A model generated the notes under the pieces. The model was not told the DNA's origin and did no database searches. It worked only from the letters and a program-made list of their open reading frames with translations. A stretch of DNA of 5,276 bases from a virus. The first letter of the stretch is position 1, and every line of letters begins with the position of its first letter. The DNA lies in the IMG/VR virus record IMGVR_UViG_3300045988_121362, positions 1 to 5,276 of that record, one strand, 5' to 3'. Of this stretch, positions 1-5,276 are shown piece by piece. A program made the position numbers and the translations under genes.

Positions 1-93
1 AGAGTATTCCAAGGCAGACCGTCATCAGACAATCCAAGATTTTTGTAGTCAGAATTACGAGAAGTCTTATAATCATAGTCAGCCTTAGCAACA
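1..93. repeat. Terminal redundancy: nt 1..93 are identical to 5184..5276. This is the overlap of a circular genome written out linearly, unit length 5183 nt.
   Basis: Direct comparison of the first 93 nt with the last 93 nt shows an exact match (agagtattccaaggcagaccgtcatcagac...agccttagcaaca). ORFs run continuously across the junction. Confidence 0.95.
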
Positions 94-752: not shown

Positions 753-760
753 CACTCCTT
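753..760 (-). promoter_or_regulatory. Shine-Dalgarno site for VP2 (AAGGAGTG). It overlaps the VP1 TAA stop at 761..759.
   Basis: Read on '-', the sequence is TAAGGAGTGATCTAT-ATG. This suggests VP1 and VP2 translation are coupled. Confidence 0.6.
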
Positions 761-2447
761 AGAAATGTCCAATCATACCAGGAATACCATACATAGGCAT
801 AGGACGGATACATTTAAGATTGAATTTAACATCAAGCAAGAAATGAGGATAGGACGGAACAGCAACAACACGGCTGATCGGAGGATGATCCTGTATAAAT
901 TCATCCGACAAAGTAGGCAGAGTAGCAAATTTTTGAGAAAGATGCCAAATGTCTAAAGGCTCCTTATAAGTTGAGCGGAATTGACCGGTAATCAAAGACG
1001 GCTTATAGCGATATTCAGCATAACGCTCTTGATAACCAAATACCTTTTTATCTTCATCATTGCCTTGGCAATAAATTTCAATATTTTCTATAGCCTGTTC
1101 ACCAAGGTGAGCAAAGGACGGCCAATAAAAATCCAACACATCCGAGCGTAACCACATTCTATTTATACCTTGCTGGTAAGTCAAATCAGCACGAACATTA
1201 ATCAAGCCAATAACATAACCAAATTCAGAGAAAGATTTTGTAAAGGCATGATAGCGTTGAGCATTTAAGCCATATGCAGCTAAATTACCTTGTGGAGTAG
1301 TAGAATCGGTGGAGCTAGTTTGAGTAACCGGGTTGATATTCATCATGCTGCTATGCGATCCGAGGAATTCCGGACGTTGCAAACGAGCATCAGGATTAGT
1401 TACACCGAAGTGAGCCTGAAGTTTTTCTGTGTAACGAGTGCCACCGCGAGCATCAATTTCATAGTAACGTTGCAACATGAAAGCCTGACGCAGTGAGTTA
1501 ATAGTTATAGAAGTTGCAGAAGACAAATCAACACTAACACCATTAACAGATTTAAGAGGGAATTCTTTAGGATTGGCACCAACACCATGAATAGTATCTG
1601 TTTCATAGTTATCAAAACCAAAAGAAGAAAGAGAATTAACGGAAAGATTAGTAGGGAAAAAACCATGATCAACATGAAAAGAAGATGAAATAGCTGCAAG
1701 ATAACCAGCAGGCATAGTTAAAGAAGCATTATCACCAACAACCAAAGCAGCAGTCTGTCCTAATGGCAGATCAACAGCAGGGCCTTTTTGTGGCCAAGGC
1801 AGAGCACCGGTGAAATAATCATATCTTTTTCCACGGGGAGCCGGGTCATACCAATTTTTTACGCCGGACGGCAAACCATAATTAGGATTAGCAGTAGATT
1901 GTCCCATTGGTTCCAAAACTGTATTAGTTTCACCTTTGGAAATCTTTACAGACTTCTGCAGATTTTCATCACGGAACCATTCGTTCCAAATAAGCCAATA
2001 CGAGCGGAAAGGCAAACAATTAACAGATACATTATTAAAATTACCAGAAGCACAAGCTATACCCATATAATCAGGCAGCTTGTTAGTCATATCACCGGTA
2101 AGAGATACAGTAGGAACAAGGTAGTCAGTGGAATCTTCGGGATTTTCCTGCTCACCACAAAGATTTACCCATTTATCATATACGAGCCTAGACGGAACGA
2201 AGAAGAAAAAAGACTCAATATAGATGTTATCCATAAAAGGAACAACCGGAGTAGCCAAACGGCAGAACTCAACAGGATTTAAAGTAAAAGTATCGCCTGG
2301 AATAACTTCATCCACAAAGTAAGGAATAAGCTGGCCTTCGTTAAAAGTAGTTTTGTAAACATGACTTCTATCAAAGACAGAACGGCGAATATTAGCTTGA
2401 GGAATCATCGCAAAATGCGACTGATTAACACGAATATTTCGAGCCAT
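759..2447 (-). CDS. VP1: VP1, the major capsid protein (F-like). It is 562 aa.
   Basis: ATG at 2447 sits 7 nt after AAGGAGA. The N-terminus MARNIRVNQSHFAMIPQANIRRSVFDRSHVYKTTFNEGQLIPYFVDEVIPGDTF matches the conserved gokushovirus VP1 start (RSxFDxSH..KTTF..G.LIP....EVLPGDT). It is the longest ORF in the genome. Confidence 0.92.
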   Translation of the reverse strand: MARNIRVNQSHFAMIPQANIRRSVFDRSHVYKTTFNEGQLIPYFVDEVIPGDTFTLNPVEFCRLATPVVPFMDNIYIESFFFFVPSRLVYDKWVNLCGEQENPEDSTDYLVPTVSLTGDMTNKLPDYMGIACASGNFNNVSVNCLPFRSYWLIWNEWFRDENLQKSVKISKGETNTVLEPMGQSTANPNYGLPSGVKNWYDPAPRGKRYDYFTGALPWPQKGPAVDLPLGQTAALVVGDNASLTMPAGYLAAISSSFHVDHGFFPTNLSVNSLSSFGFDNYETDTIHGVGANPKEFPLKSVNGVSVDLSSATSITINSLRQAFMLQRYYEIDARGGTRYTEKLQAHFGVTNPDARLQRPEFLGSHSSMMNINPVTQTSSTDSTTPQGNLAAYGLNAQRYHAFTKSFSEFGYVIGLINVRADLTYQQGINRMWLRSDVLDFYWPSFAHLGEQAIENIEIYCQGNDEDKKVFGYQERYAEYRYKPSLITGQFRSTYKEPLDIWHLSQKFATLPTLSDEFIQDHPPISRVVAVPSYPHFLLDVKFNLKCIRPMPMYGIPGMIGHF

Positions 2448-2654: not shown

Positions 2655-3098
2655 TTATTTTTGCTCTGATTGAGGCTCTCCTGCTACCGAACCGACAGCT
2701 TCTACCGGACTGTCTACAATAGCCTTCTGTTTTAGGCCTAACTCCTCTAGTCTGGAAGTAACCTTAGGATCAGTAGAAGTCAGAGCATCAAGCAGCTGCC
2801 TTGGATCATTACCGAATTCAGCACGGACGCTGGAAGGCAAATCTGCAAATTCAGCATTAACATTTGCAACGAGGTTGCAGGCAGTTTCATAATCCGGCAA
2901 TAAGGTAGTATCTCCATATTGGAGAGTAGCCGGATCATGAGCACCAACAGAATCTACAATACCGGTAGTATTAAAGTTGGCTATAATATGATGAATATCG
3001 CATTCTTCAGCGAATGTCTGATCAGCAAGCGAAGGCTGCGTAATTTCTACGTGCGGTTTTGGCGGTTGTTCGTCATAAAGCGTATAAAACTTAGCCAT
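2655..3098 (-). CDS. VP3: VP3, the internal scaffolding protein. It is 147 aa.
   Basis: ATG at 3098 sits 8 nt after AAAGGAGAT. It carries the motif set I recall from gokushovirus VP3: ...EECDIHHIIANFNTTGI...LQYGDTT...EFADLPSSVRAEFGNDPRQLLDAL...LGL. The tail is acidic and Glu/Pro-rich. Confidence 0.8.
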   Translation of the reverse strand: MAKFYTLYDEQPPKPHVEITQPSLADQTFAEECDIHHIIANFNTTGIVDSVGAHDPATLQYGDTTLLPDYETACNLVANVNAEFADLPSSVRAEFGNDPRQLLDALTSTDPKVTSRLEELGLKQKAIVDSPVEAVGSVAGEPQSEQK

Positions 3099-3354: not shown

Positions 3355-3636
3355 TTACATTTTAGCAGTATCAGGGGGAGATGTCAATAATTCAGTGGCC
3401 GTAGAGAGGAGCAAAGTGGGAGATTGTGGGGAAAATACGCACGTTTTGTCATCAAACTCGCCAAGATACATCAAAACGAAGTCCTCATGATAATCATGAA
3501 TGATATTGGAACGCTCCGGAGTAGACGGCTGGTTAACCATAATCTGAAATTGACGGATAGCCATAGCATTATTTTGTTGGGTAAAGGGCGGGTTCATCAA
3601 CTCGCCCTTGCGGTCATAAATACAATAAAGTTTCAT
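3355..3636 (-). CDS. Hypothetical 93-aa protein (Y93) directly downstream of VP4. Its function is unknown. By position it may be a VP5-like protein.
   Basis: ATG at 3636 sits 5 nt after GAGGTG. It is on the same strand as all other genes. I recognise no motif in MKLYCIYDRKGELMNPPFTQQNNAMAIRQF... Confidence 0.6.
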   Translation of the reverse strand: MKLYCIYDRKGELMNPPFTQQNNAMAIRQFQIMVNQPSTPERSNIIHDYHEDFVLMYLGEFDDKTCVFSPQSPTLLLSTATELLTSPPDTAKM

Positions 3637-3641
3637 TTTTT

Positions 3642-3647
3642 CACCTC
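3642..3647 (-). promoter_or_regulatory. Shine-Dalgarno site for Y93 (GAGGTG).
   Basis: The '-' strand reads TTTGAGGTGAAAAA-ATG. Confidence 0.55.
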
Positions 3648-3733
3648 AAAATTTTTTTTCTTAAGCAAAGCAAGAAATTCCTGTTTTGCCAAATGCGGAA
3701 CAACATAATACAGTCCATCGAACAGAACAACCT

Positions 3734-4687
3734 TTATAAACCTAAATTATCAAAATCACGCTCAAATTGTTCCTGCCGATGCTTCATAATCTTCTCCTTG
3801 GCTTCCAGCCTTTTAGTATCGATAACGGCAGCCTTGGCATTATCAGCCTTATTTTGCTTGTATATACTATACCAAACGGGATTGCTGCGCTCAAATAATG
3901 TTTGATAATAACGAGGTATTTTATACTTAGCTCCATTGATAGTAACAAAACCAAGTTTAAAAATATCCTCAGAATAAAGACCGAAATAATCTGCACCTAT
4001 ACCAGGCTTTAAAGAACTGCCAACAAACTCCGGACTAATGCCGAGAGCATCATACATACAAGCGTTTTTACCGGTCTGCTTTTTAAGGCTATATTTAGCA
4101 ACATACCGAGCGGACTCAAATGTAATAGCTCCGACAGTATTATAACCATACGGCCAAAGTTTCTCCAGCGTGGGAGAGCGAAAGAGGTTATAGCCAGCTG
4201 TCAACGCCGAGATTTTGCGAACATCATCAGGAAACCAACCAAAGCACAAAATATGATAATGTGGACGAGCATTAAGATCGCCATACTCGCCGCAGCATAA
4301 AAAGCGGATCTTAGAATTATCATGATAATCTAAATAACGGCGAAGCCGTTTAAAAAACAACTGCAGGTGATCACGATGCAGCGAGTGATCCGCTGGCAAG
4401 CAATCGTCATTATAAGTTAAAGTGATAAAACAATTATGAAGATGCAGCTTTGCTTCGTGGACACAACGAATCGCCCAATCGTTAGCTTTATCCAAACGGC
4501 AGCCTAAACACTGACCGCAGGGAACAACAACAGCATAATTATTAGCTAACTCACTTTTAGCTATTTCAAGCGATTTACCGGACAGATCACGATAGGAAAC
4601 GAAATTAGATAGCTCATACTTACCATTAGCATTAGGAACAGCAGAGCGTTTAGCAAATAAAGGATGAAGGCAAGTCATAATACACAC
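3734..4687 (-). CDS. VP4: VP4, the rolling-circle replication initiator (phiX174 gpA-like superfamily endonuclease). It is 317 aa from the GTG at 4687, or 314 aa from the ATG at 4678.
   Basis: RCR motifs are present: CFITLTY (motif I), PHYHILCF (the HxH metal-binding motif II) and ARYVAKYSLKK (motif III, with two catalytic Tyr spaced as in phiX174 A, YVAKY). A Cys cluster PCGQCLGC is also present. The start is ambiguous. The first in-frame start is GTG and an ATG follows 3 codons later. Only a weak AGAAAG precedes either. Confidence 0.85.
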   Translation of the reverse strand: MCIMTCLHPLFAKRSAVPNANGKYELSNFVSYRDLSGKSLEIAKSELANNYAVVVPCGQCLGCRLDKANDWAIRCVHEAKLHLHNCFITLTYNDDCLPADHSLHRDHLQLFFKRLRRYLDYHDNSKIRFLCCGEYGDLNARPHYHILCFGWFPDDVRKISALTAGYNLFRSPTLEKLWPYGYNTVGAITFESARYVAKYSLKKQTGKNACMYDALGISPEFVGSSLKPGIGADYFGLYSEDIFKLGFVTINGAKYKIPRYYQTLFERSNPVWYSIYKQNKADNAKAAVIDTKRLEAKEKIMKHRQEQFERDFDNLGL

Positions 4688-4696
4688 ATCTTTCTA

Positions 4697-4810
4697 CTAC
4701 ATGCGGATACCGCCACGCATATTTCTTGACTTAAGATTTTTAAGCCGAGGGACAGCATGATTACGAAAGTTCCGACGAGAAGCACCACGAGAAATTTTAC
4801 TTCTTTTCAT
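4697..4810 (-). CDS. Small Arg/Lys-rich DNA-binding protein of 37 aa: MKRSKISRGASRRNFRNHAVPRLKNLKSRNMRGGIRM*. It is a functional analogue of phiX174 J and of gokushovirus ORF8.
   Basis: I translated it by hand. ATG at 4810 sits 8 nt after AAGGAGT (plus 4818-4824). The TAG stop is at 4699..4697. It has 13 R/K in 37 residues and no acidic residues. It lies between X89 and VP4. It is absent from the supplied track because it is under 60 aa. Confidence 0.7.
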   Translation of the reverse strand: MKRSKISRGASRRNFRNHAVPRLKNLKSRNMRGGIRM

Positions 4811-4817
4811 GACGTTT

Positions 4818-4824
4818 ACTCCTT
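4818..4824 (-). promoter_or_regulatory. Shine-Dalgarno site for the 37-aa basic protein (AAGGAGT).
   Basis: The '-' strand reads TTTAAGGAGTAAACGTC-ATG. Confidence 0.55.
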
Positions 4825-4848
4825 AAATAAATACCAAGAGTTAAAAGG

Positions 4849-5118
4849 TTAATTATTTTTTCCCAAAAAGCGGGAGTAGCTTTTCTCTTCCGCCTGCGCT
4901 GCTGCTGCATGGCGAAAGCCATTTACATCATCTGTACCTCTTTTCTGCGTATTGATAAGATCATCCTGCATAGCCAGAGAGATAGCTTTAAGGCTTGCGC
5001 TGCCTTCACGGTTATACTTGCCGGTACGAAACATATCAACGAAATCAACAACTTCTTGAATGAAAGGAATGACTGTAGATACGAGAAAAGTCAAAATAGC
5101 AGTAGTTTTGTTTGACAT
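4849..5118 (-). CDS. Small membrane-type protein of 89 aa (X89): MSNKTTAILTFLVSTVIPFIQEVVDFVDMF... It has an N-terminal hydrophobic helix and a charged C-terminal domain. It is a candidate lysis or membrane-associated protein.
   Basis: The internal ATG at 5118 of the 141-aa track ORF sits 6 nt after GAGGTG (plus 5125-5130). This RBS overlaps the VP2 TGA stop. The 52-codon extension upstream of this ATG lies in a different frame of the VP2 coding sequence and has no RBS. The hydrophobic stretch is at about residues 6-24. Confidence 0.6.
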   Translation of the reverse strand: MSNKTTAILTFLVSTVIPFIQEVVDFVDMFRTGKYNREGSASLKAISLAMQDDLINTQKRGTDDVNGFRHAAAAQAEEKSYSRFLGKNN

Positions 5119-5128
5119 AAAAAACACC

Positions 5129-5276
5129 TCACTTAGAAAAATAACTAGCAATGCTAGAAAACAAACGATTACCAGCACGGGCAAGAGTATTCCAAGGCAG
5201 ACCGTCATCAGACAATCCAAGATTTTTGTAGTCAGAATTACGAGAAGTCTTATAATCATAGTCAGCCTTAGCAACA
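5129..5276 (-). CDS. VP2: VP2 C-terminal end, duplicated by the window overlap. It ends ...GLPWNTLARAGNRLFSSIASYFSK* with a TGA stop at 5131..5129.
   Basis: The '-' frame is continuous with 1..746 through the junction, since window position 1 equals 5184. The stop codon is revcomp 'tca' at 5129-5131. Confidence 0.75.
   Translation of the reverse strand, partial: VAKADYDYKTSRNSDYKNLGLSDDGLPWNTLARAGNRLFSSIASYFSK
5184..5276. repeat. Second copy of the 93-nt terminal redundancy. It is identical to 1..93.
   Basis: Exact 93/93 identity with the window start. Window length 5276 equals 5183 plus 93. Confidence 0.95.

Follow-up and report, generated by a model that had tools for sequence, protein, structure and literature searches.

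Known single-gene lysis proteins of phages are usually fast-evolving, arise de novo and are often overprinted (PMC7693330). Gokushoviruses dominate among the microviruses of gut and environmental viromes. Besides occasionally acquired M15 peptidases, no lysis gene has been identified in them, and the release of their progeny is unresolved (PMC7062461; PMC3394797). A first, sequence-only reading of the DNA described here had started from this lack of a lysis gene, in agreement with the literature (PMC7062461). Lysis-associated accessory genes occupy the VP1/VP2-VP4 slot in other microvirus families (PMC9239249; PMC3394797). Phage Ebor encodes a 45-aa membrane protein beside its pilot gene, which was undetected in virions (PMC11980548). 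Small accessory peptides with no known function are common in microviruses (PMC9239249).

The window, i.e. the whole stretch of DNA analysed, comprises 5276 nt and represents a circular gokushovirus genome of 5183 nt. Bases 1-93 recur as 5184-5276, a 93-nt assembly repeat produced by wrap-around. The minus strand is the coding strand of the whole genome. It carries VP1 (2447..759; PF02305, E = 6.8e-170), VP3 (3098..2655; PF09675), VP5 (3636..3355; PF20577) and VP4 (4687..3734; PF23343, phrog_942). The DNA pilot protein VP2 (266 aa) starts with an ATG at 746, runs across the circular junction and ends with a TGA at 5131..5129; it was assigned by synteny with annotated VP2 genes of GenBank relatives. 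Its 3′ end covers 5129..5276 (minus strand), of which 5184-5276 duplicates 1-93. A VP8-like, arginine-rich DNA-binding protein of 37 aa is encoded at 4697..4810 (minus strand; phrog_10695, E = 7.6e-6), and neighbouring genomes carry VP8-equivalent proteins of the ...MRGGFRI type immediately after VP2. In the window, the gene X89 lies between the two, giving the order VP2-X89-VP8-VP4. All genes but VP4 are preceded by a strong AGGAG or GAGGTG ribosome-binding site. The third codon positions contain 52% T, which renders the +1 frame poor in stop codons and hydrophobic. Among GenBank entries, gut Gokushovirinae from the faeces of monkey, mink, pig and human come closest, sharing at most 67% VP1 identity.

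X89 is encoded at 5118..4849 on the minus strand, with 89 codons and the TAA at 4849-4851. The translation from ATG to TAA is MSNKTTAILTFLVSTVIPFIQEVVDFVDMF...SRFLGKNN. The 89-aa frame had been reported at 4849-5118 with the strand unstated, and its quoted junctions are found on the minus strand: TGAGGTGttttttATG at 5131..5116, and TGAGGTGTTTTTTATG exactly as given. A Shine-Dalgarno sequence GAGGTG at 5125..5130 (minus strand) is separated from the ATG by six T residues and overlaps the VP2 stop codon TGA at 5129-5131, as had been claimed. The proposed coupling to a late gene is likewise upheld, X89 being taken as co-transcribed with VP2, which it abuts, while having a ribosome-binding site of its own. 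Homologues show GGAGG, GAGGTG, AGGAG or GGAGA 6-10 nt upstream of the ATG in every locus (n = 84). X89 shares no bases with the core genes and has the stretch from the VP2 stop to VP8 to itself. A 141-aa ORF starting with TTG is open in the window in frame with X89. The N-terminally extended, holin-like isoform that it would encode, with two extra strongly hydrophobic segments, was rejected, since just 1 of 17 close relatives keeps the extension open, and in a relative with 94% identity an in-frame TGA lies three codons ahead of the ATG. Translation thus starts at the ATG at 5118. A terminator between VP2 and X89 was also considered and discarded, as the 5-bp hairpin at 5145-5157 is not kept in relatives.

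X89 is a genuine, strongly conserved and clade-specific accessory gene of gut gokushoviruses. Its family is already known in PHROGs and GenBank without an assigned function. The window protein matches phrog_23638, a function-less entry of PHROGs v4, with E = 2.8e-14, its residues 1-86 aligning with positions 1-73 of the 79-position profile, while a homologue from the second of two sequence groups, A and B, reaches E = 1.9e-50. GenBank counterparts are deposited as 'hypothetical protein', e.g. ARQ16039.1 in KX513874, and the ORF is unannotated in many records; a literature search found no paper on the family. Homologues were retrieved in 88 database clusters by single-sequence search and in at least 652 clusters (90% identity) by profile search. 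All of the best 120 of these 652 matches are 79-102 aa long and stem from microvirus-size contigs of ~5 kb. The lack of long homologues among these 120, and likewise among the matches listed by an exhaustive search, speaks against a fusion or fission with VP2 and against a helix that anchors larger proteins; a 463-aa match (P0104) was a spurious repeat protein. The family is present in 257 IMG/VR contigs and in 20 of 2545 VP1-matching GenBank gokushovirus records. A scan of 185,579 species genomes indicated a phage-restricted gene that is not host-derived.

X89 is intact, with ATG start and ribosome-binding site, directly after VP2 in 84 of 84 related loci, and no pseudogenised copy occurs among these 84 genomes. 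It precedes VP8/VP4 in all checked loci. The overall dN/dS is 0.16-0.20. X89-bearing genomes form two VP1 clades, with identities of 65-71% and 62-81% within and ~51-55% between the clades. A third VP1 clade is equidistant (51-58%); there, VP2 is followed directly by VP8 and VP4, with no gene at the X89 site. Conservation in related microviruses, which the sequence-only reading had left to be checked, thus extends to all 84 related loci and stops at the equidistant clade. This absence and the 20 of 2545 records characterize X89 as a lineage-specific accessory gene and not as the general lysis solution of gokushoviruses.

X89 is built of two conserved modules with a variable, charged linker between them. 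The N-terminal helix module (codons 1-30; 5029..5118, minus strand) is near-invariant, as judged from dN/dS and invariant residues. For residues 2-27, dN/dS is 0.023 in group A and 0.025 in group B, at dS values of 0.83 and 0.52, respectively. Between the groups, synonymous divergence of the N-terminal part is saturated (dS 1.28), with a dN of 0.16. Across 154 distinct sequences, I8, L9, F11, P18, F19 and D25 do not vary and K4, T6 and Q21 hardly do, a charged residue never appears at positions 5-20, and the conservation covers all faces of the helix. The first 30 residues share 70-75% identity between the window and group B, compared with 54% for VP1 and 33-42% for VP2, VP3 and VP4. The dS of 0.83 rules out a nucleotide-level cause, such as an overlapping element. 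Within the module, the uncharged hydrophobic core TTAILTFLVSTVIPFI (codons 5-20; 5059..5106, minus strand) is a candidate membrane-spanning or signal-anchor segment with borderline scores. Residues 28-80 vary in sequence and length, with a dN/dS of 0.20-0.37, and are essentially randomised between the groups. This charged middle contains a second helix predicted by AlphaFold (codons 37-60; 4939..5010, minus strand). The C-terminal motif S-R-F-L-G (codons 82-86; 4861..4875, minus strand) has the consensus [WY]-S-R-F-[LFI]-G, with basic residues next to it on the C-terminal side; the whole family shares an unvarying R83 and F84. The serine of SRF is encoded by both TCN and AGY and the arginine by both CGN and AGA. 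This switching between codon families shows conservation at the protein level and excludes a nucleotide-level cause for the motif. In group B, the codons TGG AGG after the motif double as the ribosome-binding site of VP8.

An AlphaFold model computed with 26 sequences comprises a helix at residues 3-32 (pLDDT 74-83), a helix at 37-60 (pLDDT 58-65) and a disordered tail, with a pTM of 0.30. A dN/dS of 0.02 on every helix face points to a specific conserved partner and away from a generic anchor or signal peptide. As read from these substitution patterns, the N-terminal helix must recognise some highly conserved partner, either a host envelope protein or a phage surface. VP2 identity ranges from 33% to 97% beside an unchanging X89 helix, the same X89 start adjoins two unrelated VP2 3′ ends, and recombination breakpoints lie at the VP2/X89 junction; the helix therefore does not co-evolve with VP2.

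The membrane-spanning character predicted for the helix is borderline. The sequence-only reading had described about 19 hydrophobic residues near the N-terminus. A hydrophobic stretch exists, but the quoted 19-mer contains Q21 and E22, and the uncharged core from T5/T6 to I20 measures 15-16 residues. In Kyte-Doolittle 19-mer scans, X89 scores 1.78 and its group B homologue 2.06, compared with at most 1.41 for the other proteins of the genome. The X89 segment is thus the highest of the proteome, exceeds the classical threshold of 1.6 and comes near to MS2 L (1.74) and LysM (1.98). On the Wimley-White octanol scale it reaches -4.9 kcal/mol, versus -10.4 for MS2 L, -13.5 for LysM and -17.3 for phiX174 E; a segment of the soluble capsid protein, with -6.8 kcal/mol, exceeds it. 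A naive sum on the Hessa translocon scale, without position weighting, gave +0.6 for a 15-mer and an unfavourable +5.0 for the 19-mer. The claimed N-terminal hydrophobic helix therefore stands by its Kyte-Doolittle rank, whereas its core is short and, on the Wimley-White scale, weak beside lysis proteins. K4 before the core and E22, D25 and D28 after it suggest an uncleaved signal anchor with N-in/C-out topology according to the positive-inside rule. Direct reading revealed no AXA-type site of a cleavable Sec signal peptide after the core, where QEVVDFVD follows, and the conservation continues through residue 26, unlike in signal peptides. The charged C-terminal domain of the sequence-only reading is indeed highly charged (~29%), although its net charge is near neutral or slightly basic (pI ~9.6 for residues 29-89).

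Homology searches gave few indications of function. X89 has no match in Pfam (E <= 1) or NCBIfam, including the holin families and PF04517. An hhalign comparison with phiX174 E resulted in a probability of 0.2% over 7 aligned columns. The resemblance to E that had been put forward is therefore architectural and is not borne out by PF04517 or by hhalign. The best matches of a sequence profile in the PDB were pilin alpha-1 helices (E = 0.68, not significant), and Foldseek found no match to the PDB with the low-confidence model (pTM 0.30). PADLOC reported a marginal match of a group B member to a 4TM effector (E = 0.006). Both weak profile matches, the pilin alpha-1 helix and the 4TM effector, are membrane helices. 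Homology to a virion-internal or scaffolding protein, which would have spoken against a lysis function, was not found in PHROGs, Pfam or the PDB profile search. No similarity by sequence or fold was seen to VP1, VP2, VP3, VP4, VP5, VP8, J, B and solved microvirus proteins.

Apart from X89, whose role in lysis is unproven, no candidate is visible for the lysis function that is missing in this genome. The seven ORFs of the genome are VP1-5, VP8 and X89, with neither an endolysin or peptidase gene nor spare coding space. No endolysin was seen among the listed ORFs of the relatives, which were inspected without a domain scan, and their listed unmatched ORFs of at least 70 aa include no further conserved gene except an accessory ORF between VP4 and VP5. 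An E-like lysis gene overprinted in VP1, VP4 or another gene was rejected, as alternative-frame ORFs are not conserved and, for 13 of the 14 combinations of gene and frame tested, are no longer than those of synonymous shuffles (p = 0.12-0.98). Frame +2 of VP3 departs from this with a 36-codon ORF, at a nominal p = 0.05 that is uncorrected for the 14 tests. A very hydrophobic ORF embedded in VP1 is covered in 4 of 10 matching relatives (17 searched) and was dismissed as a lysis gene. The apparent conservation of a VP4-embedded ORF stems from the conserved HUH-motif region. Chance ORFs of the length of X89 do occur, since synonymous shuffles of the individual genes gave mean lengths of 34-89 codons for the longest run without a stop in the +1 frame.

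The best single reading, held tentatively and at less than an even chance, is that X89 is a membrane-active late protein causing lysis via a host target. It is favoured by the membrane-like helix, the position in a slot of lysis accessories, the host- or clade-specific distribution, and the lack of an alternative candidate. X89 would share the transcript of the structural genes, and its translation would begin from a separate ribosome-binding site at the VP2 stop. The N-terminal helix (~3-32; core 5-20; invariant P18; acidic cap Q21-E22-x-x-D25) would serve as an uncleaved membrane anchor, with K4 ahead of the core and the acidic cluster behind it directing an N-in/C-out orientation. Engagement of a highly conserved host-envelope partner by this helix would then abolish wall integrity, resulting in single-gene lysis. 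Two routes are conceivable. A membrane enzyme of the lipid-II pathway may be blocked, as by phiX174 E and LysM. Alternatively, X89 oligomers may depolarise the membrane, so that host autolysins act. Membrane insertion, topology, host target and lysis itself are steps that we only infer for X89.

Several observations stand against a lysis function. It is weakened by the core of 15-16 residues, which on the Wimley-White scale is far weaker than the helices of validated single-gene lysis proteins (-10 to -17). By sequence comparison, it is not supported by homology to any lysis family. Related clades without X89 must still lyse, hence a core-encoded mechanism may exist. The strong conservation and the C-terminal docking-type motif are no less characteristic of proteins of the virion or its assembly.

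A virion-associated or assembly factor is the next reading to be considered, possible although on the unlikely side. The helix would dock onto a conserved surface of one of the phage's core proteins, VP1 or the inside of the procapsid being the most plausible sites, and the basic, aromatic C-terminal SRF motif would tether DNA or capsid like the C-termini of phiX174 J and B. In a variant, X89 might be released along with VP2 upon entry and, being membrane-active, assist the delivery of DNA. The gene lies within the structural module, between VP2 and VP8 and coupled to VP2, and the combination of a helix conserved on all faces with a short conserved C-terminal motif recalls bipartite docking proteins. 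The hydrophobicity of X89 falls in the range of buried soluble segments, purifying selection is at least as strong as on the capsid protein, and none of the 84 genomes has a pseudogenised copy. However, the equidistant clade shares the capsid architecture and has no counterpart of X89, which is unusual for a structural component. The invariance of the helix next to a VP2 of 33% to 97% identity, with breakpoints at their junction, indicates no co-evolution, and X89 resembles neither VP3, VP8, J and B nor any solved microvirus protein.

Protein K of phiX174 is small and non-essential, has a hydrophobic N-terminus and affects burst size. X89 may similarly act as a non-lytic membrane accessory, modulating burst size, excluding superinfecting phages or tethering replication or assembly, which is improbable as a single explanation. 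The clade-restricted, accessory distribution and the small size with one weakly hydrophobic helix agree with such a role, and microviruses commonly carry small accessory peptides of no known function (PMC9239249). Exclusion and host-interference proteins, however, are usually fast-evolving, whereas the X89 module has a dN/dS of 0.02 and is intact in every genome; moreover, the genome would then be left without any lysis candidate. Both the virion or assembly role and the non-lytic accessory role fit the weak hydrophobicity, the conserved docking-type C-terminal motif and the absence from sister clades. That X89 is a chance ORF or has a mis-called start, the real E-like lysis gene being overprinted elsewhere, is effectively refuted: the 52% T at third positions does cause frequent long hydrophobic pseudo-ORFs, e.g. 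1505-1699 (minus strand), and the 141-aa in-frame extension is open in the window, but ORF, start and ribosome-binding site are kept in 84/84 loci despite saturated synonymous divergence between the clades, codon-family switching of Ser and Arg preserves the SRF motif, the extension is open in 1/17 relatives, and alternative-frame ORFs stay within the shuffle null save for the nominal p = 0.05 of VP3 frame +2.

In the 185,579 species genomes scanned, X89 was matched once, on a contig that is an entire phage and had been binned in a Clostridiales MAG. Two joins of phage to bacterial sequence (L091, L092) were rejected as prophages and judged assembly chimeras, as they show mid-gene breaks on both sides or a wrap-around longer than one genome length. 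Gokushovirus-like gut clades have been reported as CRISPR-targeted by Firmicutes (PMC8530359). The strong use of ribosome-binding sites and this published targeting agree with a putative Firmicute host.

If X89 is the lysis effector, the near-invariant helix implies a conserved host target and would be of antibiotic interest, comparable to the pairs E-MraY and LysM-MurJ. A more far-reaching proposal, which is doubtful at present, regards the X89 family as the missing lysis gene of a widespread gut clade and as a new, sequence-unique 'protein antibiotic', whose 26-residue helix would lock onto a conserved envelope-biogenesis protein of gut anaerobes, probably Firmicutes. In that case, knowing the sequence of the helix would suffice to indicate a new druggable site. 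If X89 is a virion or assembly protein instead, it would be a previously unrecognised component of the particle. Under either reading, a pattern of selection that conserves a short helix more strictly than the capsid protein provides a clear and testable signal. X89 represents a concrete, clonable lysis candidate for one abundant gut clade, and I8, L9, F11, P18, F19, D25, R83 and F84 are targets for mutagenesis.

Small late proteins with a single hydrophobic helix are of a familiar kind in phages. The selection signature of X89 is unusually sharp, which makes it, as a candidate for gokushovirus lysis, a good target for experiments. The amurin E of phiX174 (PF04517, Microvir_lysis) is similar in length (91 versus 89 aa) and likewise combines an N-terminal hydrophobic helix containing a proline (P21 in E, the invariant P18 in X89) with a charged, poorly conserved tail. 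Both genes are located in the late region, just upstream of the gene for a small DNA-binding protein (J and VP8, respectively). Unlike X89, which is a free-standing gene, E is overprinted in another frame of the scaffolding gene D. E itself has an essential proline in its N-terminal transmembrane helix, and its SlyD-dependent inhibition of MraY results in septal lysis. The core of X89 is much shorter and weaker, its predicted topology is opposite, and the conserved C-terminal SRF motif is a feature of X89. The two proteins are unrelated in sequence, and the likeness is architectural, not evolutionary. In ssRNA phages, the single-gene lysis proteins (the MurJ inhibitors LysM and Sgl-PP7, and MS2 L) are small and act through one membrane helix, by which a conserved protein of envelope biogenesis is bound. 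By Kyte-Doolittle, MS2 L and LysM (1.74-1.98) are comparable to X89 (1.78), which is much weaker on the Wimley-White scale. They are also sequence-unrelated to X89 and, in contrast to its very strong conservation, typically evolve fast and are often overprinted (PMC7693330).

Holins and pinholins of dsDNA phages, including class III with one transmembrane domain, are small late proteins with a hydrophobic helix and a charged C-terminus, as is X89. Polar Thr and Ser residues along the helix could line an oligomer in both. In contrast to holins, X89 has no accompanying endolysin in this genome, no Pfam holin match and one marginal membrane segment only. The M15 peptidase genes of gut microviruses are, like X89, clade-specific accessories in the VP1/VP2-VP4 region and are associated with lysis (PMC3394797; PMC9239249). 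Gp1 of phage Ebor, a membrane protein of 45 aa, is encoded beside the pilot gene and went undetected in virions (PMC11980548). Compared with these two, X89 has no enzymatic domain and no homology to either.

The first 93 nt of the window (1-93) are repeated exactly and in direct orientation at its end (5184-5276). The genome is therefore circular with a length of 5183 nt, and the terminal repeat is an assembly wrap-around. The DNA pilot protein gene VP2 crosses the circular junction.

A recombination or module boundary appears to lie at the junction of VP2 and the gene of the 89-aa accessory protein X89 (window ~5131-5160). The same site was found in four related loci (L005, L014, L016 and L018). 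VP2 3' ends are unrelated among close relatives, yet adjoin an identical X89 start. In these relatives, VP2 is between 65% and 97% identical, compared with 88-97% for X89. In the relative L090 (KT264820.1), an extremely hydrophobic candidate ORF of 37 aa (2526-2639; MRFFLIFSLVLFDLFLVFSTFFILDFLNILAFFQRSI) is located between VP2 and the X89 homologue, preceded by an AGAGGT ribosome-binding site. Two metagenomic contigs, L091 and L092, join the X89 phage lineage to bacterial DNA. Both joins break mid-gene, in X89 at codon ~48 (L091, ~468) and in VP4 (L092, ~5160), the latter after more than one genome length. The contigs look more like assembly chimeras than prophages.

An arginine-rich, VP8/J-like DNA-binding protein of 37 aa (phrog_10695) is encoded at 4697-4810 (-). 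Several GenBank relatives carry this ORF without annotation, and the X89 homologue likewise. An alternative-frame ORF of 41 aa (4797-4922 (-); MAFAMQQQRRRKRKATPAFWEKIINLLTLGIYLRSKRHEKK) spans from the 3' end of X89 into the start of VP8 and reaches at least 85% coverage in 15 of 16 matching relatives (17 searched). Compared with synonymous-codon shuffles, the +1 frame of X89 shows no significant excess in length (p = 0.16); thus, the 41-aa ORF is probably fortuitous. Within the capsid protein gene VP1, a very hydrophobic pseudo-ORF of 64 aa (1505-1699 (-)) shows two apparent membrane segments. Other very hydrophobic +1-frame pseudo-ORFs are embedded in VP1, VP2 and VP4. These pseudo-ORFs are a consequence of the 52% T at third codon positions. 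For the embedded +1-frame ORFs of these three genes, no conservation was found in relatives, and their length does not exceed chance expectation.

The intergenic gap between VP3 and VP1 contains a hairpin (2569-2616) with a perfect 20-bp stem and an 8-nt loop (TGTCACCTTGACCAGTTACT...GGTAACTGGTCAAGGTGACA). The palindrome is kept in the relatives L092 and L093 and could act as terminator, complementary-strand origin or packaging signal.

Most relatives harbor, among the ORFs listed, an extra ORF of 79-121 aa between VP4 and VP5, e.g. in L007 (4862-5227), L005 (2233-2535) and L080 (3518-3757). No match to PHROG was obtained for it. In group A of the X89-carrying relatives it starts with 'MLKDY...', while group B has 'MLISEF...FRGSKYAAYRL'. 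The window lacks this ORF in the corresponding gap (3637-3733), which explains why its genome is ~200-450 nt shorter.
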